Source: Gammaproteobacteria bacterium
Lineage (GTDB): Bacteria > Pseudomonadota > Gammaproteobacteria > SZUA-152
NCBI GenBank assembly: GCA_021647505.1
Contig: JAKIUN010000002.1
Span: 54,158-118,157 of the forward strand
Direction: 5' to 3'
DNA: 64,000 bases
Positions 4,479-59,938 of the stretch are shown here, in pieces. Each line of letters starts with the position of its first letter. The stretch's first letter is position 1. A model generated the notes under the pieces. It was given only the letters and a program-made list of their open reading frames with translations. It ran no database searches and was not told the DNA's origin. The position numbers and the translations under genes are program-made.

Positions 4479-4721
4479 GATGTTCTCGGCTCTGGCAATA
4501 AAAAATGGGAACAAAAAACAGCCTACGGATGTTAGCGGCAACCCTACCCACGGCACAAGCCAGCCACTCACACAGCTCAACAACCACCTGCTAACGCGGG
4601 AGGTCAGCCTGGGTGAGCAGGCTTTCCATGCCCACGAGAAATGTGAATCAACCGCGTGAGCACACAAAACGAGCCCATCACCCTACCAGCGAGAGTTTTG
4701 CAAGAGGCTCGCGGGGCTAAT

Positions 4722-7618: not shown

Positions 7619-8548
7619 CTAGCGGGAAGCCAGGATGTATTTCTTGGGATCGACGGGCTGGCCCTTGTAGTGCACCTCGAAATGCACATGGGGGCCAGTG
7701 GAGCGGCCGGTGGAACCCATCTTTGCCAGTGCCTGGCCCTTTTTCACCGCATCCCCCATACCGACCAGTATCGTCTCGTTATGCCCGTAGCGGGTGACAT
7801 AACCATTGCCGTGATTGATTTCCACCAGGTTGCCATAACCATAGCGACTGCCGGCCCAGGTTACCACACCGGCACCCACGGCAATCACTTCGCTGCCAGC
7901 CTTGCCCGCAAAATCCATGCCTTTGTGATGTTCACGGCGACCACTGAAGGGGTCGGTGCGCATACCATAATAAGATGAAATCCAGCCACGCTTGATAGGA
8001 CGCCCGGCAGGAAATACCGCATCTTGCAGATTACGGCTCATGAGCATGGTTTCCAGCAGACCCAGTTGATTGGCACGATCATCCAACTGGCGGGAAAGGC
8101 TCTCGAGTGACTGCACAAAATCCGGCAGAGGTGTCGCTTCAGGGGCGGAAGCCAATTCCGGACCACCCACAGCGGGCTTGGAGGAGAAATCAAACTCACC
8201 TTTGTCGAGATCAGCCACCTCGGTCAGGCGTTCCCCCAAGGCATCCAGACGAATGACCTTGGCCTGCAGCCCACCCAAGCGCAGAGCCAGAGCATCCATA
8301 TTTTCATGTGCCCTGCGCTGAGCGTCAGCAACCTCTTCACGCTGAGCCAACATCGCCTGCTGCCAAGCGCTCATCAGTAATTCGTCTTGGCTCTGGGGGG
8401 CTGCCTTCTGCGCCACCCAATAGCCACCAAACACCAACAGAGAGGGAACCATGACAAATGCCAGCACTGACGCCAATATCACCGCAGCGCGTGTCACCGT
8501 TACCGTACGCGTCCTGCCTCCCCGCTTGCCAACAAAGATAATATTCAT
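7619..8548 (-). CDS. M23 family metallopeptidase (murein-hydrolase-activator-like), N-terminal TM anchor
   Basis: LytM/M23 motifs (HKGMDFA...G..V.A.G.G.V...GYGN...I.H..G..T.Y.H, HVHFEV); start moved to ATG preceding the TM helix. Confidence 0.8.
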   Translation of the reverse strand: MNIIFVGKRGGRTRTVTVTRAAVILASVLAFVMVPSLLVFGGYWVAQKAAPQSQDELLMSAWQQAMLAQREEVADAQRRAHENMDALALRLGGLQAKVIRLDALGERLTEVADLDKGEFDFSSKPAVGGPELASAPEATPLPDFVQSLESLSRQLDDRANQLGLLETMLMSRNLQDAVFPAGRPIKRGWISSYYGMRTDPFSGRREHHKGMDFAGKAGSEVIAVGAGVVTWAGSRYGYGNLVEINHGNGYVTRYGHNETILVGMGDAVKKGQALAKMGSTGRSTGPHVHFEVHYKGQPVDPKKYILASR

Positions 8549-8653
8549 ACTGCGCCGTCCGCTCCCGTTTATCACCGCTTCGAGGTATCGCTTCCAGCTG
8601 TTACCACTGTGAACTACAATGGTGTCCTGTTTCAATCCGAAGACATTCGCGCC

Positions 8654-9133
8654 ATGCCTGTCCGTAAAAGAGCATTCAGCAAGAGTCTGGCCAGCATTCT
8701 GGCTGCGGACGACAACGGTCTGCAACCGCTGTTTGCTCACGCCCATCGGCTACAGACGCTAAACCGTCTGCTGCGCGGCGCACTGGGTGAACCCCTTGGC
8801 CCGCATGTCAGTCTATGCAACATCCACACCGACACCGCCATCGTTACCGCAGATTCACCCGCTTGGCTCACCCAGCTCCGCTATCAGGCGCCAACGATAC
8901 TGCACATCCTGCAAAGCCAGCCGGGACTCGAGTCCTTGCGCAAGGTACGATTCAAAGTGCAGCCCACCAGCGAGCCGACAGAGCCGGCATCGCCACCCCG
9001 CCGCGCCTCACTCTCTCCTTCAGGGGCAGAGATATTGGAAAGCGCAGCGGAGGGAATTCAGGACTCCGAACTTGCCGAAGCCCTGCGACGCCTGGCACTC
9101 AACGGCTCGGCAAAAGACGGCAGGCCACCGTAA
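8654..9133 (+). CDS. dciA: DUF721/DciA-like protein
   Basis: Residue pattern consistent with DUF721 (DciA) proteins, which often lie next to lpxC/secA; start chosen at MPVRKR to avoid overlap with the divergent M23 gene. Confidence 0.5.
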   Translation: MPVRKRAFSKSLASILAADDNGLQPLFAHAHRLQTLNRLLRGALGEPLGPHVSLCNIHTDTAIVTADSPAWLTQLRYQAPTILHILQSQPGLESLRKVRFKVQPTSEPTEPASPPRRASLSPSGAEILESAAEGIQDSELAEALRRLALNGSAKDGRPP

Positions 9134-28410: not shown

Positions 28411-28617
28411 TTAACGCGCTAAAATCCAGGAAATCTTTCTTTTCACACAATGACTTAGCGTCATGACAGCATTCCTGGCAGGCAGAAAAACGAACTACCT
28501 GACGGCAATCAAATCGTTGCTGTGTGAAGTTAAAGTAAAAGATTAGGTTTGGAGCCCAGAGGGGGCACAAAACGGAGAATCGTGCGAAAAAGGACAACAG
28601 AAGGAAAAAGCAATAAA

Positions 28618-28988
28618 AAAGGAAGCCGGCCTGTAAGCCGGGTTCTGTCGAGAACAGCCATTCATCTGGGCGCCACGTCACCGCGACGCTCGTGCGACCT
28701 ACCCGGGAGCAACGCGGGCCACGCCAATGCTCCCCTATTTGGTCTTGCTCCGGGTGGGGTTTACCCTGCCACCGCTGTTACCAGCGACGCGGTGCGCTCT
28801 TACCACACCTTTTCACCCTTACCTGTGCACCGGTGTGAACACCGGGCCATCGGCGGTCTGTTTTCTGCGGCACTTTCCGTAGGCTCTCGCCTCCCAGGTG
28901 TTACCTGGCACCCTGCCCTTTGGAGCCCGGACTTTCCTCCACATGTCTTGCAGGCAAGACACACAGCGACTGTCCAGCCGACTTCCGC
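28618..28988 (-). ncRNA. rnpB: RNase P RNA (bacterial type A)
   Basis: Reverse complement contains the universal RNase P RNA blocks GGAGGAAAGTCCGGGCTCCA...AGGGCAGGGTGCCAGGTAAC...GGTAAGGGTGAAA.GGTG.GGTAAGAGCGCACC...GGTAAAC.CCACCCGGAGCAAG.CCAAATAGG...ACAGAACCCGGCTTA; the P1 stem pairs GGAAGTCGGCTGG with CAGGCCGGCTTCC; T-run after the 3' end. Confidence 0.85.
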
Positions 28989-29096
28989 GCATAGTAAACG
29001 CCATTCCGGCCCCGAAATGCAAGCCTGTGGCGGTAAAGTGGACCCCGGATTCCAGACAGTAGTTTAAGCTGTCCCCCAGGATCTGAGGAACAGGTA

Positions 29097-29396
29097 ATGA
29101 GCGAGAAGAAGAAACGCAAGGTACACAGTGCAGAGTTCAAGGCGAAAGTGGGTCTTGAAGCCCTCAAAGGCGTGAAGACAATCAACGAGATTGGTCAGGC
29201 GTATGGAGTTCACCCCGTGCAGGTGGGTCAGTGGAAGAAGGCTATTCAGGAGCAGGCGAAGAGTCTGTTTGAGGGTAAGCGAGGCCCCAAGCCTGCTGCC
29301 GAACACCGACAGCCAGAGAAGCTGTTTTGCGAGATTGGCAAGCTGAAGATGGAGCTGGACTGGCTGAAAAAAAAGTCCGGGATCAGCCAGCCATGA
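29097..29396 (+). CDS. IS3-family transposase OrfA (HTH subunit)
   Basis: MSEKKKRKVHSAEFKAKVGLEALKGVKTINEIGQAYGVHPVQVGQWKK... characteristic of IS3 OrfA, including leucine-zipper C-terminus. Confidence 0.8.
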   Translation: MSEKKKRKVHSAEFKAKVGLEALKGVKTINEIGQAYGVHPVQVGQWKKAIQEQAKSLFEGKRGPKPAAEHRQPEKLFCEIGKLKMELDWLKKKSGISQP

Positions 29397-29515
29397 AGCG
29401 CTGGTTGTGGATTGAGCGGGAACATGAGATTCCGGTGGTTCGCCACCAATGCGAGTTAACCGGGGTCAAGCCTTACAATTTATACCTTATCAGAAAGAAG
29501 GGGTCAGGTCTTTGA
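29393..29515 (+). pseudogene. truncated IS3-family OrfB (integrase-core subunit) 5' fragment
   Basis: Only the first ~40 codons of orfB remain (…WIEREHEIPVVRHQCELTGVKPYNLYLIRKK…) before a stop; no DDE domain follows. Confidence 0.5.
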
Positions 29516-29682
29516 CTTGTAATCTCTACTCCGATAATCTCTTAGTTCCTGAGAGTCTCACAAGACACCGACATGACCCGCCCGATCATAAATCAAAGAC
29601 CTGACCCTGCATTTCTTTCGCTACGCTCATAAATTTCCGGCGAATTGGAGGCAAGAGGGAGAGTTCCCGCATTGTGGCTATC

Positions 29683-29725
29683 GGTAGGGTGGGCAGGCTT
29701 TTCATGCCCACGTGAAATATGCGCC
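29683..29725. repeat. half-copy (one hairpin unit, 42/43 identical) of the REP/MITE-like repeat family
   Basis: ggtagggtgggcaggcttttcatgcccacgtgaaatatgcgcc is the reverse complement of the second half of the full elements at 55947-56128 and 60040-60211. Confidence 0.7.
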
Positions 29726-29730
29726 TAGCT

Positions 29731-29797
29731 CAGCGGCAGGAATAAGGGGCGCGTATTTTTGCGAGCGCAAAAATCGTGACGCTTATTCCTGCCGCTG
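29731..29797 (-). terminator. long perfect hairpin (16-bp stem cagcggcaggaataag / cttattcctgccgctg, nested inner palindrome) 3' of the parE-like operon
   Basis: Perfect 16-bp inverted repeat with 35-nt loop itself partly palindromic; sits 10 bp downstream of the toxin stop on the minus strand; no obvious U-tract. Confidence 0.35.
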
Positions 29798-29807
29798 GAG
29801 ATTATAG

Positions 29808-30107
29808 TTATCTTTTTTTCAATTTATCCCTTATCCATGCCGGTTTCTTACGACAATCAAGAACAGCATATATAAGCACTGCGTCTTCCTCTATGTAGTA
29901 GTAAACAGAAAATGGAAATCGTTTTGACAGCAAGCGATGATATTTTCCAAAATGTATGGAGTGAATCCCAGCATTGAGAATCAATGAATCTATATCCGAG
30001 AAAAGAGTGTCCAAAAAATACGTACCGATACCCTCGGATTGTTTTTCATAGAACCAGTAGCCATCGATTAAGTCTTGGCTTGCCGATTTAAGTATTTTTA
30101 TCTTCAC
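29808..30107 (-). CDS. type II toxin, RelE/ParE superfamily
   Basis: 99 aa, low GC; ParE/RelE-like fold pattern; 4-bp overlap with upstream small antitoxin gene. Confidence 0.7.
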   Translation of the reverse strand: MKIKILKSASQDLIDGYWFYEKQSEGIGTYFLDTLFSDIDSLILNAGIHSIHFGKYHRLLSKRFPFSVYYYIEEDAVLIYAVLDCRKKPAWIRDKLKKR

Positions 30108-30322
30108 GAGATGTCATTTCTAATATTATTTTTGGCTTCCTCCCAATCAACAAATTGATCCTCTCCCCTCTTTAAGCGCCCTTCTCTTTCATTAAGAATC
30201 TTCTCATGCCATGGAGGAGATGAGAGGCTATCTGCCTTTTTGCATAAATCATCCCAGATGGATTCCATGGCTTGGAGTTTTTCTTCTACAGACATTGTAT
30301 CTAAAGGTAAAGTAACTGCCAT
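30104..30322 (-). CDS. putative addiction-module antitoxin (TIGR02574-like component)
   Basis: 72 aa; MSVEEKLQAMESIWDDL...PPWHEKILNEREGRLKRGEDQFVDWEEAK matches the 'putative addiction module component' family paired with ParE-like toxins. Confidence 0.65.
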   Translation of the reverse strand: MAVTLPLDTMSVEEKLQAMESIWDDLCKKADSLSSPPWHEKILNEREGRLKRGEDQFVDWEEAKNNIRNDIS

Positions 30323-30358
30323 TGTTTTCTCCTATGTTTTTTGTGCAAGATAACGCTT

Positions 30359-30420
30359 CACATCACCGGCAGCAAAAAGCAGAGCGAGGAACGACCGAGA
30401 TTTTTGCTGCCGGTGATGTG
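30359..30420 (-). terminator. perfect 20-bp inverted repeat (cacatcaccggcagcaaaaa / tttttgctgccggtgatgtg) between the 163-aa gene and the TA operon
   Basis: Perfect stem, 22-nt loop; located 26 bp 3' of the 163-aa gene stop and 37 bp upstream of the antitoxin start, so could be terminator and/or operator. Confidence 0.4.
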
Positions 30421-30445
30421 ATTGTTAGCAATATTTATATAGCCA

Positions 30446-30937
30446 TCAGATCTGAATGATTTCGTCTAGTTCTAATTGCCAACTTTTTAACTTATTCTGC
30501 ATTTCTGTTCGGAGTGTCAGTTCGGCCTCTTGTGCTTCCTTAAATACTTTTTTAACTTCTTCAACATCTAGCTCTTCACCTGTTTTGCCCTTGTAAATAA
30601 TCTCCCCGACCTTTGCACTTAAATTATTTATATTTTCTGCAATACTCTTGCACAGATAATGTTGACACTGTTGAGAAATACCAGCTTTTTCAGTAAAGGA
30701 AACCATAGCGTGCCCTATCATTTGCTGCGGTAATATTTCACCAATACCAACATCCATTTTTACTGTGCTAATTTGGTTAAGAGCCGTCTCCACCTTAGAT
30801 ATTTTCTTTTGAAGAATTTCTATCCTAATATTTTTTAAAGCTACTTCATTTTGTCTACGTGACGCTATCAATGTAGCTAAAAAGCTAACAAACGCTCCAA
30901 TAATAACCCCAAAAAAGCCAATAAGTGCAGTGTCCAT
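30446..30937 (-). CDS. hypothetical membrane-anchored coiled-coil protein (163 aa, low GC)
   Basis: N-terminal TM helix (LIGFFGVIIGAFVSFLATLIA) followed by predicted coiled coil; codon usage distinct from core genes; no recognisable family. Confidence 0.5.
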   Translation of the reverse strand: MDTALIGFFGVIIGAFVSFLATLIASRRQNEVALKNIRIEILQKKISKVETALNQISTVKMDVGIGEILPQQMIGHAMVSFTEKAGISQQCQHYLCKSIAENINNLSAKVGEIIYKGKTGEELDVEEVKKVFKEAQEAELTLRTEMQNKLKSWQLELDEIIQI

Positions 30938-31019
30938 ATTTTTCCTATTGCTAACGCTTATTATACGGCTTTTGCCTCGATATCATCGGTTTTGGCGTGG
31001 GCAATGTTCGCCTGTCGAA

Positions 31020-31066
31020 GGAGATTGAGCCTGGGTGGCAAACTTTTAATGCCCACGCGAAATACG
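31020..31066. repeat. degenerate copy of one hairpin unit of the REP/MITE-like repeat family
   Basis: cctgggtggcaaacttttaatgcccacgcgaaatacgagcc resembles gtagggtgggcacgttttttgtgcccacgcggttggcgc. Confidence 0.3.
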
Positions 31067-31115
31067 AGCCAACCGCCGCTGGCTGGCCAGTATGCGGCAC
31101 TGAGGCCCGGCGGGA

Positions 31116-32732
31116 TTACTCCCGCTTCAACGAAGACAGGCGCGCGAAACCCTGGCGCTCGGCCGCCGCCAGTTGGCTCTCGTGGATAGTAAAAACATTA
31201 ATCACGCCATCCGGGTCATCGCAGACCTGGAGATAGTCCTTACCGTCGGTGTCTTCCCAGTACTTGGCCACGTCGACACCGGCCTTCGTTAGAATTTTCG
31301 CCATCTCTACTGCGGGCGTCCCGCTGCCAACAGCACACTGCAGCGAATCCTTGTAACGATAAACATCCACCGGGGGGCTGTCGCCGCAACCCACAGTCCA
31401 GTCAGCCACCACCAGCGATCCCTCCAGGGTTTTCACCTGTCCGATGTGGAGCAGCCTCGCCGTATCACGGACGTACACCGCAAAGAGGAAGGGCCGCTGA
31501 TCCGGGGGATAGAAGCAGGAAATGACGGGCGAGTCGGGTGAGTCACCGACACCCGCCGTAATGTTGCCAAGAATGAGGCCGAGAGGCTCATCCTCAGTAG
31601 CGGTATGTACCGCTGCCACCGCCGTGACAGCATTCAACCCTTCCTCCCCCACTTGCAGCTCGATGGACTGGCGCAAAGGCTCCAGGTAGAGAAACCCAGC
31701 ACCATTGACCGGCGTGAAGTCGGCCTGCGCCTCGCTCAGGGCAATGCCTAGGCCGGGCAACATATCATCGACCAACATCCGTTGCAGGGAAAACACTGGC
31801 AGGTCAAGGGTAGTCTGCTCAGGCGCCAGGCCCTCGGTAAGCTGCTGCCAAAATCCAGCATCCAGTCGTCCGCGAACCGTATCGAAGCTGCCAGCCGCCG
31901 GGATGATCACCACCAGCGACAGGCCGTCTTCGGCCAGCGGCACGGCCACCGCCCGGTAGTCCTCGCCCTCGGCCACCGACAGCTCGCCGCCGATGTGCAG
32001 CATGGGCACCCGGCGCTGTTCCTCGTGCTCGCCAAAGCGGCCCTCGAACAGCTCTATCGCCAGATCATCCGACCAGGCAGTCTGCAAGCGGGTGGTCTGG
32101 GCAAGGATCAGGCGGCTGCGCTCGCCGATTTCCTCCAGCGCCAGGCGGTCATCCAACGCATCCTCGATGGCGCTGCGCGCCGAGATGAAGTCATCGCGGA
32201 AGTCCAGCCCGGCCATCTCGGGACCGAACAACTCGGCCTGAGCCTGGAGATAGTCACGATGGAAACGATAACCTTGCTGGCCCCACAATAAACGCTGGCG
32301 TTCGACAGCGTCGAGATCACCGATTCGCTGTTCCCACAGGCTGAGACCGGCCAGAATCTCGGCCCTGACCGAATCCTCCAGTGACGGCCAACCACCGGCG
32401 GTAGCGATGGCCTGCAGGGTCTCGCCCCTGGCGCCAAGGGTAAGGCCAGCCAGGAGCTGCTGCACATCGAAGGGTGCAGTGAGGGTATTTCCCTCACCCG
32501 CACGAAAACGGAAATCGTCGAAGGCAAAGGCCAGATGCACCGCTGCCGGGTCGCTGGCGGCAGCGGCCACCAATGCCTCGGGCGGGGTACGCCGGTCATC
32601 GCCCGGGTAGGATTCAATGGAGACCCTGTCGTCATCGATATCGACCGGCGTGGTGGCCTCCTCGGCACAGGCGGTGAGTAGCATGGCAGCCGTAAGAAGC
32701 CACACGGGTAGCGCTTTTCGTAAGCTCAACAT
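31116..32732 (-). CDS. serpin-family lipoprotein with ~100-aa C-terminal extension
   Basis: Lipobox (LLTAC) after signal peptide; serpin N-terminal block (N.L.APF.V..LL.GL.LGARGETL..I); reactive-centre-loop hinge (EEGLNAVTAVAAVHTA); C-terminal serpin motif (DQRPFLFAVYVRDTARLLHIGQV). ATG at 32732 chosen over the upstream TTG. Confidence 0.6.
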   Translation of the reverse strand: MLSLRKALPVWLLTAAMLLTACAEEATTPVDIDDDRVSIESYPGDDRRTPPEALVAAAASDPAAVHLAFAFDDFRFRAGEGNTLTAPFDVQQLLAGLTLGARGETLQAIATAGGWPSLEDSVRAEILAGLSLWEQRIGDLDAVERQRLLWGQQGYRFHRDYLQAQAELFGPEMAGLDFRDDFISARSAIEDALDDRLALEEIGERSRLILAQTTRLQTAWSDDLAIELFEGRFGEHEEQRRVPMLHIGGELSVAEGEDYRAVAVPLAEDGLSLVVIIPAAGSFDTVRGRLDAGFWQQLTEGLAPEQTTLDLPVFSLQRMLVDDMLPGLGIALSEAQADFTPVNGAGFLYLEPLRQSIELQVGEEGLNAVTAVAAVHTATEDEPLGLILGNITAGVGDSPDSPVISCFYPPDQRPFLFAVYVRDTARLLHIGQVKTLEGSLVVADWTVGCGDSPPVDVYRYKDSLQCAVGSGTPAVEMAKILTKAGVDVAKYWEDTDGKDYLQVCDDPDGVINVFTIHESQLAAAERQGFARLSSLKRE

Positions 32733-33114
32733 CCCTTTAATTCCTTTCAAGATCAACAATACTCAACAACCACCGGCTAAAGCTGGTGGGTTAGTTTTAC
32801 GGACTGAAAGTCATAATACGGGTTTAATCCGGCCCGGCAATGGCCATCAAAACACCGTGTAGGATGCCTGTGCCAACCGTAGATGCATTAAGCGAGCCTG
32901 CAAACCACATTGGTCGAGAACGATACCCCCTCACAATGACCAGCACGCAATCTCACACGAACGATGCGGTTCACTACCGCTCATCAGCATCCTACACGAA
33001 TGACCCAAGTGCCTTTCCATAGATAATATTCCCAAACCGACTCATGTGTGCCTTGCAATACGCTTCCCTCAGGTTTAAAAAGGGATTTAAGCCCTTGCCC
33101 CAAGGAGCACGATT

Positions 33115-58173: not shown

Positions 58174-58248
58174 GCTCCCTTCGTCTAGTGGTTAGGACAC
58201 TGGCCTCTCACGCCGGTAACAGGGGTTCGAATCCCCTAGGGAGCGCCA
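58174..58248 (+). tRNA. tRNA-Glu (anticodon CUC)
   Basis: Cloverleaf folds perfectly: acceptor stem GCTCCCT/AGGGAGC, anticodon loop CT-CTC-AC, T-arm GGGGTTCGAATCCCC, CCA end; body nearly identical to tRNA-Glu of E. coli except anticodon CTC instead of TTC. Confidence 0.85.
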
Positions 58249-58681: not shown

Positions 58682-59938
58682 TCAGGGCTCGAAGCGAATC
58701 ACGTCGCCAGGCGCCAGGCGGGCAATGTCCTCGGCCAACTCTCCCACCGAGAACAGACGTTGTACCTGCGTCACAATCAAGTTCGTGGCCGGATTTTCCG
58801 CATAGCCCAGCGCGCGCTGGCCCGGGTAATCCTTTACCGGCACTTCGCTGAGCTTGTAGGTATTCAGCACGTCACCCACACGGATGTCGGCCAATCCACC
58901 GGCATCGAAATAGACCTTGTTGCCTTCGGCGCGGATCACTCGTGCAGTAAAGGGCTGTGAACCGACATCACTGACGATCAGTGCCACCATTCTGTCCAAC
59001 ATCTGATCCACTTCCCGGCCGAAAGGCGAAGCGAAGAATTTTTCACTCATCATCACAGTATTAGCGGGATGCAATACCGTCAAAAAACGCTCTTCCACCG
59101 TTTCACTGACCCTGTGCCGTGCCACCAAGGCTCCAGAAATACCGTCATGAATAAACAAGTCCAGTTCCAAATGACGCATTTTGGTGCCGAGAAAATGATT
59201 GCTCACACTCATGTCGCGAATCACCCCTGTGATGACGAACTGCACACCCAGGGATTCGGCGAACTCCGAAGCCACCTGATGCGGCTCACGCGCCGGCGGC
59301 AGAGCACCGAGAATGCGCCGCTGGGAAATGACGCCCTCTTCGCTCAGCGGCAGTAAGTATTGACTGGCGTTCACTGTCAGCACTCGGCCATCACTGATCA
59401 GGCGTCGTTCCAGTTCGCGCGCCAGTTCCGTTTCGATCTTCGGCAGGTCGTGAATCTGGGTTCGGTCGAGAACGTGGAACTGGCTCACGGCGACCTTGCG
59501 GCGGTAACGATTTGCCGCTTCGGCATTGCCATTCGCGTACCGGCTGGCCTGTCCGGTATCGCCAGCGCCACCCGGCTCCGCCTTCATTAGCGCCTGTAGC
59601 AGCGCATCATCTGGCACCTGGGCACGAATCTTCACATAATAATGATCTTCATCCGCCCATTCGCGGAGAATCACCACATGGGTCACGCGCCCCTGTGCGG
59701 AAAAACGCATATTGTCCGCCACCACACCGTTACGGGTCGTCACCGTGGTGATGGAGATGCGTGCATTGGCCTGCATCAGTGCCTGGCGAATAGCATCCTG
59801 CAGGGCCATACGCTTGGCCTGCGCCGTCGAGTCGCCGATGCGCGCCGCGCCCTCGGCCTCTACGGTCTGCGCCTGTGCCAGTCCGCCCGGCAGCGGCACA
59901 ATCAGCAATAACAGCAGGATTTTTAACAGCTTGGACAC
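58682..59938 (-). CDS. flgT: FlgT-like protein (flagellar H-ring assembly protein T family)
   Basis: Signal peptide; N-terminal domain resembles Vibrio FlgT (VEAEGAARIGDSTAQAKRMALQDAIRQALMQA vs YEATGQAVI.GD...AR..A.QDALRQAS.QA); adjacent to motY; GTG start. Confidence 0.5.
   Translation of the reverse strand: MSKLLKILLLLLIVPLPGGLAQAQTVEAEGAARIGDSTAQAKRMALQDAIRQALMQANARISITTVTTRNGVVADNMRFSAQGRVTHVVILREWADEDHYYVKIRAQVPDDALLQALMKAEPGGAGDTGQASRYANGNAEAANRYRRKVAVSQFHVLDRTQIHDLPKIETELARELERRLISDGRVLTVNASQYLLPLSEEGVISQRRILGALPPAREPHQVASEFAESLGVQFVITGVIRDMSVSNHFLGTKMRHLELDLFIHDGISGALVARHRVSETVEERFLTVLHPANTVMMSEKFFASPFGREVDQMLDRMVALIVSDVGSQPFTARVIRAEGNKVYFDAGGLADIRVGDVLNTYKLSEVPVKDYPGQRALGYAENPATNLIVTQVQRLFSVGELAEDIARLAPGDVIRFEP

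Follow-up and report, generated by a model that had tools for sequence, protein, structure and literature searches.

An islet of low-GC DNA beside rnpB is probably a two-cassette integron remnant carrying a toxin-antitoxin pair and an uncharacterized membrane protein

What kind of element is an islet of low-GC DNA, lying next to the gene for RNase P RNA in a gammaproteobacterial genome, whose cargo is an antitoxin/ParE-like toxin pair and a 163-aa membrane-anchored orphan protein, each followed by a long perfect hairpin? Every feature that an earlier note had listed at this locus was found at or near its given position in the window, the 64,000-nt stretch of DNA analyzed here. The low GC content was borne out: it is 0.35-0.42 across about 29700-31050, compared to 0.60-0.67 on either side and ~61% for the genome, and the two gene-plus-hairpin units delimited below have values of 0.371 and 0.390 against 0.61 in their flanks.

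Comparison with relatives, using rnpB as a conserved anchor (28618-28985, minus strand; Rfam RF00010, 330 bits), indicated that the islet is foreign and not ancestral. The earlier note had expected rsmI at this position and inferred broken synteny, and this proved right: rsmI lies beside rnpB in relatives L012 and L014, the latter found via RsmH and showing the ancestral rnpB-rsmI junction, while rsmI is absent from the 64-kb window. None of L012, L013 and L014 has the islet, with rsmI or other inserts present at rnpB, so that the conservation in all relatives that would have spoken against a foreign origin was not found. In blastn comparisons, the homology of these three relatives to the window runs leftwards from rnpB and ends at 29022-29027, which is the left end of an IS3-family fragment.

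The two perfect inverted repeats that had been reported are both present. The hairpin behind the toxin gene pairs 29731-29746 with 29782-29797, giving exactly the described 16 perfect bp as a basal stem within arms of 29 nt, topped by an apical stem-loop. The hairpin behind the orphan gene pairs 30358-30378 with 30401-30421 around a 22-nt loop, and its stem is 21 perfect bp long, not 20. Folded as DNA, both had z-scores of -5.8 to -8.7, and none of 200 shuffles folded as well. Their supposed likeness to terminators did not survive: no T-run follows either stem (the following sequences are AGCGTTATCTTGCAC and AGCTAGGCGCATATT), and a terminator scan of 28500-31500 reported none there, which together rule out a terminator reading.

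Integron integrases act on attC sites, which they recombine as folded single strands, and the hairpins carry the boxes of such sites. The site of the orphan gene, attC2 (30348-30432, minus strand), consists of R'' ATTGCTAAC, AA, the 21-bp stem, AGC and R' GTTATCT. Its cores, TGCTAAC ... GTTATCT, have the AAC and GTT exact and the rest of RYYYAAC/GTTRRRY partly matched, and TAAC and GTTA are paired in the fold. The site of the toxin-antitoxin pair, attC1 (29729-29814, minus strand), has an R'' (AAGATAAC, with the box AGATAAC) that overlaps the toxin stop codon, but there is no GTT after its 3' arm, where ...CCGCTGAG|CTAGGCGCATATT runs into a host repeat. By manual and comparative criteria, the islet thus contains one complete and one 3'-truncated attC, 540 nt apart.

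Known attC sites are built of an R-box helix, an unpaired spacer usually of 5-6 nt, and extrahelical bases (PMC5027507). In attC2 the unpaired spacer is 2/3 nt and extrahelical bases are absent; indeed, both window stems are perfect and lack the two to three extrahelical bases on the AAC arm that make an attC an imperfect palindrome. Orthologous sites at four loci in other DNA (L178, L007, L005 and L002) do combine an R-box helix and an unpaired spacer with bulges of one base each on the arm that bears AAC, and the attC at L141 is likewise bulged on that arm. The L178 orthologue is colinear with attC2, from which it differs by three single-base bulges (G, T and A, 3+3 bp apart), all on this arm, and by one compensatory G:C to C:G swap in the window copy. 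With its R-box helix, short unpaired spacer, and three bulges 3+3 bp apart on the arm with top-strand AAC, it resembles the canonical sites VCR2 and attC-oxa2, which have three extrahelical bases (PMC5027507). The "perfection" of the attC2 stem is therefore explained by the loss of all three extrahelical bases. The L007 orthologue shares its R'', center and 3' arm with attC1 while the stem sequences differ, and it possesses in addition a bulged base and an R' GTTATGT located 9 nt past the stem. Both comparisons show a structure that is maintained despite changes in sequence. Since the window stems are perfect and their orthologues bulged, the window sites appear to be derived, and the sequence comparisons identify the hairpins as degenerate attC recombination sites rather than terminators.

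The boundaries of the two units tell the same story. The orphan cassette (601 nt; 30354-30954, minus strand) opens with TTAGCAAT, the base before it being the G at 30955, and its last base is the G of the attC2 R'. The toxin-antitoxin cassette (29729-30353, minus strand) opens with TTATCTT, preceded by the G at 30354, and closes with the truncated attC1. Homology of the orphan unit to six other loci (L002, L004, L005, L006, L177 and L178), representing four or five distinct contexts, begins at G|TTAGCAAT, and the DNA upstream is unrelated. Homology of the toxin-antitoxin unit to four other loci (L007-L010), of which three are distinct since L007 and L008 match, begins exactly at G|TTATCTT, again with unrelated DNA upstream. 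These positions are as expected, because the cleavage point of integron integrases in the 3' core lies between G and TT; each ORF, together with its attC, thus recurs as a mobile unit in differing contexts, with homology breaking at the G|TT crossover.

A further correspondence links each cassette end to its own hairpin. In the orphan cassette, the G plus 5' end (GTTAGCAAT) is the exact reverse complement of the R'' ATTGCTAAC (9/9), and in the toxin-antitoxin cassette the equivalent GTTATCTT is the exact reverse complement of AAGATAAC (8/8), compared to a background in which a match of this kind lies 300-1200 nt downstream for only ~1% of the window's GTT 8-mers. At L002 there is a genuine array: its consecutive cassettes lie on the same strand, include the orphan, and are separated by repeats of an attC type of the form GCCGAAC...GGGCCGCTGGTGATGCAAGCC-GTT. 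The attC-like repeats of L004 are less clear. Upstream of the orphan cassette in the window, the junction reads ...GCCGTATAATAAGCG|TT (30955-30985, minus strand), and the AAGC-G before this crossover resembles the attC 3' spacer in L007, L009, L178 and attC2. Judged by sequence comparison, this junction may be what is left of an upstream attC, its last few bases, or else a point of insertion into the genome (attG-type).

Together, these results indicate, with a probability that we place at about 0.87, that the islet is the remnant of an integron array, comprising two cassettes with no integrase nearby, that is, a CALIN, or cluster of attC sites lacking an integron-integrase, a class defined with IntegronFinder (PMC4889954; PMC9024848). 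Called genes within ±10 kb yielded no tyrosine recombinase or Phage_integrase match; a tblastn search of the whole window with the recombinase fragment encoded at L007 returned nothing better than E=0.43; and the parts of a complete integron (intI, attI and a Pc promoter) were not found in the window, where a serpin gene lies upstream of the cassettes instead. It is this lack of a nearby integrase gene that would make the islet a small CALIN. Formally, membership of the class rests on the IntegronFinder covariance model, which has to call two or more attC sites in a span of 4 kb; of the window sites it might call only one or none. In a simple scan for AAC...GTT with a stem, one that misses bulged sites, attC2 obtained a stem score of 21, but the scan lacked specificity, the window giving six matches compared to 0-4 in shuffles.

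A CALIN comprises at least two attC sites but no intI, and an IS is nearby in 38% of cases (PMC4889954); CALINs with two cassettes are the commonest class, and genomic GWT sites can take cassettes (10.1101/2022.09.11.507474). The islet is similar in its two same-strand cassettes, its lack of intI within 10 kb, its adjoining IS fragment, its small size, and its cargo of an unknown-function cassette and a toxin-antitoxin module. It departs from a typical CALIN in that host REP-like copies flank it at an apparent chromosomal rearrangement junction, and in that both attC sites, which were assigned manually and by comparison, are degenerate: one is devoid of extrahelical bases and the other of R'. 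In the former respect attC2 equals the engineered "delta-EHB" mutants of PMC5027507, which lose strand selectivity and, for VCR2, 50-fold efficiency. Insertion at an attG site, or SALIN (10.1101/2022.09.11.507474), offers another point of comparison. The islet resembles this arrangement in being a small, isolated cassette cluster in a region without an integron platform, with a 5' junction at G|TT and upstream DNA that is neither attC nor attI. Its 3' junction, however, lacks R' and so does not show attC joined cleanly to the genome at G|TT, which prevents the reconstruction of a single insertion event; the relatives yielded no empty site.

The cargo of the second cassette was confirmed as a toxin-antitoxin pair, as previously proposed. 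The 72-aa antitoxin (30104-30322, minus strand) matches PF09720, "putative addiction module component", with 57 bits against a cut-off of 23, and is encoded directly upstream of the 99-aa toxin (29808-30107, minus strand); the two genes overlap by 4 nt (GTGA) and are translationally coupled. The toxin matches Pfam PF05016 (ParE_toxin) along its full length but below threshold (17.6 bits, E=0.006, gathering score 23), and a profile search against the PDB reached ParE2 at E=0.45 only. It has 3774 homologues, some of which, including an identical protein, are named RelE/ParE family toxin by NCBI, and one family member carries a precomputed PF05016 match. Its AlphaFold2 model (pLDDT 81) has the topology beta-alpha-alpha-beta-beta-beta, and the top Foldseek matches to this model were solved ParE toxins and PfiT (TM 0.70-0.74, E 1e-4 to 1e-2), with RelE/YoeB/YafQ lower (TM 0.35-0.53). 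From these models, the pair is predicted to be of the ParE type.

Toxin-antitoxin cassettes are the commonest defense/stabilization cargo of chromosomal integrons (10.1101/2024.07.02.601686). The pair described here has the hallmarks of those in sedentary chromosomal integrons (ParE/RelE-type in Vibrio, and PfiAT-type; PMC13108822; 10.1101/2024.07.02.601686): it is a two-gene type II module with overlapping genes, a ParE fold and its own attC, and the structural matches of its toxin include the PfiAT complex 9w3a. It differs from known integron examples in that its antitoxin belongs to PF09720, not ParD, its cassette is oriented the same as its neighbor, PADLOC matches neither toxin nor antitoxin, and its toxin shares only 14-21% sequence identity with the solved ParE/PfiT toxins. 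Antitoxin and toxin remain paired in L007-L010, and most distant toxin homologues lie outside cassettes. The closest homologue of the pair (93% identity, L007/L008) adjoins a truncated tyrosine recombinase of 221 aa whose best NCBIfam match is an integron integrase (TIGR02249, 86 bits, vs 77 for XerA). In the PDB the best matches of this protein are XerC/XerA, not IntI4, and its scores are about equal for XerA/XerC and IntI.

The orphan (30446-30937, minus strand) was examined by AlphaFold2 modeling, hydropathy and conservation. The earlier description of an N-terminal transmembrane helix holds: hydropathy shows a single hydrophobic helix at residues ~4-26, followed by SRRQ, and this helix is strongly conserved, with a small-residue motif. 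The body does not conform to the coiled coil that had been suggested; in the AlphaFold2 model (pLDDT 85) the transmembrane helix continues into a predicted four-helix bundle, not an extended coiled coil. The protein would thus be a membrane-tethered, cytoplasmic four-helix bundle. It has 12 close homologues and 48 cluster representatives among 1.84 billion proteins. The remote-homology search called for in the earlier note produced no clear homologue: the fold search returned only generic four-helix-bundle matches, and no family in PADLOC, Pfam, NCBIfam or PHROG scored above threshold. The orphan is a member of a rare family without an informative homologue.

These properties bear on one of the rival explanations, namely that the islet is a defense islet, in which a toxin-antitoxin module is joined by a membrane-anchored singleton of the abortive-infection type, each closed by a strong terminator hairpin. 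The toxin-antitoxin pair is real, and the conserved transmembrane helix with its small-residue motif, in a protein with no housekeeping homologue, would suit such a role. Two of the orphan's homologues adjoin defense-type genes, the neighbors including Mrr_cat, PDDEXK_GAPS4, AAA_15/21 and TIR-SIR2 genes, and about 18% of tested V. cholerae cassettes of unknown function gave phage resistance, one of them TM-only (10.1101/2024.07.02.601686). Adjacency in a cassette array does not imply shared function, however, so these neighbors establish no functional link. The orphan's best PADLOC match, PDC-S67 (E=0.005), covers residues 1-35, which is the transmembrane segment only; significant matches to PADLOC, Pfam and PHROG are lacking, and its structural matches are generic. 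Moreover, the hairpins have no T-run and do not appear in the terminator scan, and they can be recognized as attC sites from their boxes, boundaries and orthologues. We consider a dedicated defense islet unlikely. A role of the orphan itself in phage defense is possible; that it founds a new family of integron-borne, single-gene membrane effectors of phage defense, in which a conserved GxxxG-type transmembrane helix would oligomerize in the membrane under the control of the cytoplasmic four-helix bundle, is a speculative proposal to which we assign a low probability.

The surroundings of the integron remnant are themselves composite. On the rnpB side lies the 5' fragment of an IS3-family element (29024-29470, plus strand), recognized by Pfam HTH_Tnp_1 and by blastn to IS3/ISPpu29 copies. 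It contains the left end, orfA (the 99-aa ORF at 29097-29396, plus strand, that matches HTH_Tnp_1), an A7G frameshift-type motif read directly from the sequence at 29368-29375, and the first ~30 codons of orfB. Alignments to IS3/ISPpu29-type copies extend over about 29024-29466 only, which is some 440 bp from the start of the element, and the DDE part is missing, so that this is no intact IS3. A search of a plasmid collection with the islet gave matches confined to the IS3 part. The fragment that was said to bound the islet is thus present, but it does so on one side only, and the low-GC DNA begins only ~260 bp further on, past a MITE-like element and a REP-like copy. The 120-bp MITE-like element (29496-29615; terminal inverted repeats GGGTCAGGTCTTTGA) is outside the cassettes, and two tandem copies of it (87-92% identity) adjoin rnpB in L012.

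REP-like host repeats flank the cassettes. The window contains five copies of this family, compared to 0.07 expected. Copy A (29680-29728) is cut off at the array boundary; its match to copies C and D (56036 and 60128) holds as far as GCGCC, after which the sequence passes into attC1. Insertion of the array into a GTT of a REP element was considered, as the array ends a few bases from the REP consensus GGTTGGC, and was set aside when the other junction gave no support. Copy B (31030-31079), 77% identical to copy A, is part of the 3' flank of the serpin-like gene (31116-32759, minus strand, the same orientation as the cassettes; Pfam Serpin, 1e-27). REP-like sequences also occur downstream of the serpin gene in L091 and L093, and homology to the serpin locus stops at about 31097. 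In relatives (contexts L091-L096), other genes follow the serpin, neither the cassettes nor rnpB. The pre-insertion site was recovered from neither set of relatives: those found via RsmH share nothing with the window beyond 29027, and those found via the serpin diverge about 18 nt past its stop.

The cassettes would accordingly appear to sit at a rearrangement junction, composed of the IS3 fragment, the MITE and REP copies, that links the serpin locus to rnpB. Could this junction instead be an artifact of assembly, with the contig mis-joined via the IS3/MITE repeats and the cassettes truly located only at the serpin locus? The source is a metagenome-assembled genome, synteny with three relatives breaks exactly at the end of a repeat-class element, and unrelated genes follow the serpin locus in relatives, all of which fit a mis-join. 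But the orphan protein is recorded on two contigs, of 53.9 kb and 129 kb, and CALINs commonly adjoin IS-mediated rearrangements (PMC4889954). We regard an artifact as very unlikely, and it bears on the location of the islet, not its identity. The absence of rsmI from the 64-kb window is compatible with both a mis-join and a true join.

The notion that the hairpins are merely host REP/MITE-type repeats flanking foreign genes by chance, with no link to integrons, is prompted by the five REP-like copies (two of them flanking the islet) and the 120-bp MITE shared with L012, and can be rejected as extremely improbable, since neither hairpin sequence recurs within the 64-kb window, both accompany their genes in unrelated metagenome contigs, both have a low GC content like the cassettes and unlike the host, and both carry AAC/GTT boxes complementary to cassette 5' ends.

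For the two-cassette integron remnant, the following history is plausible. The cassettes probably came in either through insertion by an integrase or on a piece of an array. Read along the minus strand, cassette 1, from 30954 down to 30354, carries the orphan and ends in attC2, and cassette 2, from 30353 down to about 29729, carries the antitoxin/ParE-like toxin pair and ends in attC1. The latter pair may serve as an addiction module, counteracting loss of the segment, and both cassettes are presumably now largely immobile. The loss of bulges, seen in these two sites only, is the product that would be expected of replication template-switching ("quasipalindrome correction") once selection by an integrase ends.

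These findings overturn nothing in the current understanding of integrons. They re-file a puzzling islet with perfect hairpins as ordinary mobile DNA, integron cassettes outside an integron: an element of a known kind, carrying one uncharacterized membrane protein. They also provide a test that requires nothing beyond the sequence, namely that the 5' end of a cassette, with the G before it, should be reverse-complementary to the AAC box at the base of its own hairpin. The cassette gene pool gains a rare, uncharacterized membrane protein family, found in arrays that also carry defense genes. Finally, two natural attC sites without extrahelical bases, with orthologues that can be identified, bear on how arrays decay after loss of their integrase; more speculatively, stranded attC sites may be turned into perfect palindromes by template-switching, which would then be a readable mark of integron fossilization.

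The islet lies on the contig of a metagenome-assembled gammaproteobacterium, with rnpB (28618-28985, minus strand) as its left anchor. Beyond rnpB come the 5' part of an IS3-family element, whose orfA (29097-29396) matches HTH_Tnp_1 and to which IS3/ISPpu29 copies are similar over ~29024-29466 only, a 120-bp MITE-like inverted-repeat element (29496-29615; terminal inverted repeats GGGTCAGGTCTTTGA), and a REP-like host repeat in truncated form (copy A, 29680-29728). About 1.2 kb of low-GC DNA follows (37-39%, versus ~61% for the genome), holding three minus-strand genes: a 99-aa toxin (29808-30107), a 72-aa antitoxin (30104-30322; PF09720, 57 bits) that overlaps it at GTGA, and a 163-aa orphan (30446-30937). 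A second REP-like copy (31030-31079) and a serpin-like gene (31116-32759, minus strand) complete the layout. The hairpins 3' of the toxin (29729-29814) and of the orphan (30348-30432) have perfect stems of 16 bp (basal stem) and 21 bp, respectively, with fold z-scores of -5.8 to -8.7. The features listed in the earlier note (low GC, toxin-antitoxin pair, orphan, and a long perfect hairpin 3' of each unit) were thus borne out almost to the base. Its interpretation held only in part. Each hairpin is an attC site, and each unit that it closes is an integron cassette.

This identification rests on four agreeing lines: boundaries, self-complementarity, architecture, and context elsewhere. Among 5.8 billion proteins, the orphan has only 12 close homologues; the contigs of six were compared with the window at the DNA level. 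In all six, DNA homology to the orphan unit starts at TTAGCAAT, directly after a G, and the upstream DNA is unrelated; homology to the toxin-antitoxin unit starts at G|TTATCTT in four loci (L007, L008, L009 and L010). Integron integrases cross over at G|TT, and a cassette that circularizes through its attC must show complementarity between its 5' end and its AAC box. The G plus 5' end of the orphan cassette, GTTAGCAAT, is the exact reverse complement of its own AAC box, ATTGCTAAC (9 of 9 positions), as GTTATCTT is of AAGATAAC in the toxin-antitoxin cassette (8 of 8). By comparison, only ~1% of the window's GTT 8-mers have a complementary partner at cassette distance.

On the coding strand, the orphan's site (attC2) reads ATTGCTAAC-AA-[21-bp stem, 22-nt loop]-AGC-GTTATCT, with TAAC and GTTA paired. 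Orthologous or neighbouring sites in five other loci (L178, L007, L005, L002 and L141) fold as an R-box helix and, past a short unpaired spacer, a stem whose AAC-bearing arm has single-base bulges, matching the published attC layout (PMC5027507). One of these loci, L002, is a true cassette array, in which one attC type is repeated between same-strand cassettes, the orphan homologue included; sedentary chromosomal integrons likewise have a homogeneous attC type. The array neighbours of orphan homologues include defence-type genes: in L002 (1-5879), an Mrr_cat cassette and a PDDEXK_GAPS4 cassette of three genes; in a second array (L004, 1-5073), a TIR-SIR2 protein and an AAA_15/AAA_21 ATPase. 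The toxin-antitoxin cassette closest to that of the window (toxin 93% identical) adjoins a truncated tyrosine recombinase, whose top family match is integron integrase, with XerA scoring nearly as well. Just downstream of the toxin-antitoxin cassette in L007 is a Tn3-family-like terminal repeat (1445-1480; GGGGTCAGACTCGAAT...TAAG).

Two other readings of the hairpins fail. They are not terminators, as both stems lack a following T-run; nor are they host repeats, since each occurs only once in the window and moves together with its gene unit. The window does hold a REP-like family of ~80-nt elements (at 4628, 29704, 31049, 56036 and 60128; consensus GGTAGGGTGGGCAGGCTTTTCATGCCCACGTGGAATATGCGCCAACCGCGTGGGCACAAAAAACGTGCCCACCCTAC; alternating GTGGGCA/TGCCCAC motifs), with five copies observed versus 0.07 expected. 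The last two bracket a tRNA gene (58174-58245) and a 418-aa ORF (58682-59938, minus strand) that has no NCBIfam match, a site that may be another insertion point.

Both attC sites differ from their orthologues. In L178, the orphan homologue (78% identical in protein) is followed by an attC colinear with attC2 that has three extrahelical bases (G, T and A) in its 5' arm, spaced 3+3 bp; attC2 lacks exactly these three and has one compensatory G:C to C:G swap. The toxin-antitoxin cassette of L007 has an attC with one bulged A and, 9 nt past the stem, the R' box GTTATGT, whereas the corresponding window site (attC1) has neither and runs into REP-like copy A two bases past its stem. By these comparisons, both are derived, degenerate attC sites. 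An attC without its GTT core cannot be cut, and we infer that the window array is largely fossilized. In engineered sites, deletion of the extrahelical bases abolishes strand selectivity and lowers VCR2 efficiency 50-fold; attC-aadA7 and attC-oxa2 tolerate it (PMC5027507). Replication template-switching acts on quasipalindromes (PMC7202029) and, judging from these two sites, could have removed the bulges once selection by an integrase was gone. A further decayed site of this cassette family belongs to the closest orphan homologue (82% identity; L177, 655-760), whose attC is truncated after the loop, with unrelated AT-rich DNA in place of its 3' arm and R' box.

No tyrosine recombinase gene was called within 10 kb of the islet, and tblastn found none over the whole window. 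An attC cluster lacking integrase (CALIN) is defined as at least two attC sites without a nearby intI, and 38% of CALINs have a neighbouring IS (PMC4889954); two-cassette CALINs are the commonest class (10.1101/2022.09.11.507474). By this definition, the pair is a candidate CALIN.

Three close relatives, identified by their RsmH (88-94% identity), match the window on the dcw-mraZ-rnpB side as far as position 29022-29027, exactly the IS3 end, and have nothing in common with it beyond. The earlier note expected rsmI beside rnpB; in L014 it lies 93 nt away, and it was not found in the window. In L012 the order is rsmI, a different 99-aa ParE/RelE-like ORF (7985-8284), two tandem MITE copies (8496-8734; 87-92% identical) and rnpB, so the MITE-like sequence is mobile or dispersed in this clade. 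At this flank L013 has different low-GC DNA, and a GGGGTCAGACTCGAAT-like motif upstream of rnpB (about 395-420). Beside rnpB there seems to be an insertion hotspot, where small mobile modules have landed repeatedly in this lineage.

Relatives of the serpin locus diverge ~18 nt past the serpin stop and carry unrelated genes thereafter. The islet was not conserved in relatives from either side. Since the two loci are separate in relatives and homology ends on both sides, the cassettes appear to lie in junction DNA (REP, cassettes, REP, MITE, IS3 fragment) that unites them. There is a small chance that the adjacency to rnpB is instead a mis-join of the metagenome assembly through repeats; the cassette identity is unchanged either way. 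At the 5' junction, ..AAGCG|TTAGCAAT, the bases may be what is left of an upstream attC that was lost, or may mark a genomic attG-type site. A lipoprotein-type N-terminus (...LLTAC) characterizes the serpin-like protein, whose gene is divergent beside a MacAB-type ABC exporter and its membrane-fusion protein, a pairing kept in relatives. In L095/L096 (6001-8136) its C-terminal module of ~83 residues is repeated, giving a 711-aa protein, and sequences related to the REP-like family occur 3' of the serpin gene in L091 and L093.

The proposed ParE/RelE-type pair is ParE-type by the fold of the toxin model. In sequence, the toxin scores below threshold against Pfam ParE_toxin; its AlphaFold model (pLDDT 81) has a beta-alpha-alpha-beta-beta-beta fold and resembles ParE toxins of solved structure and the PfiAT complex (TM 0.70-0.74) more than RelE-type toxins. 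The family is very large and promiscuous (3774 homologue matches; 59-93% identical across phyla in the loci examined), and only some members are cassette-borne. By analogy with toxin-antitoxin cassettes of chromosomal integrons (PMC13108822; 10.1101/2024.07.02.601686), the pair is most likely an addiction module that would resist loss of the segment.

The orphan was recognized by none of the libraries searched, and the structure search that the earlier note called for returned generic bundles as the sole matches. Its single transmembrane helix stands, but the body is a predicted four-helix bundle (pLDDT 85), continuous with the N-terminal helix, and not an extended coiled coil. An SRRQ motif after the helix and the positive-inside rule suggest a cytoplasmic bundle. 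With 48 cluster representatives among 1.84 billion proteins, the family is small; all members are ~165 aa, some with an additional N-terminal extension, and the transmembrane helix is the best conserved segment. A role in defence or abortive infection is a reasonable guess, albeit an unlikely one, based on the anti-phage rate measured among cassettes of unknown function (10.1101/2024.07.02.601686) and on the neighbours in L002 and L004.

The islet is thus a familiar type of element, a set of integron cassettes left behind without an integrase, with a ParE-type toxin-antitoxin cassette among them. Of modest interest are two natural attC sites that lack extrahelical bases relative to identifiable orthologues, and a rare, uncharacterized family of membrane-protein cassettes.
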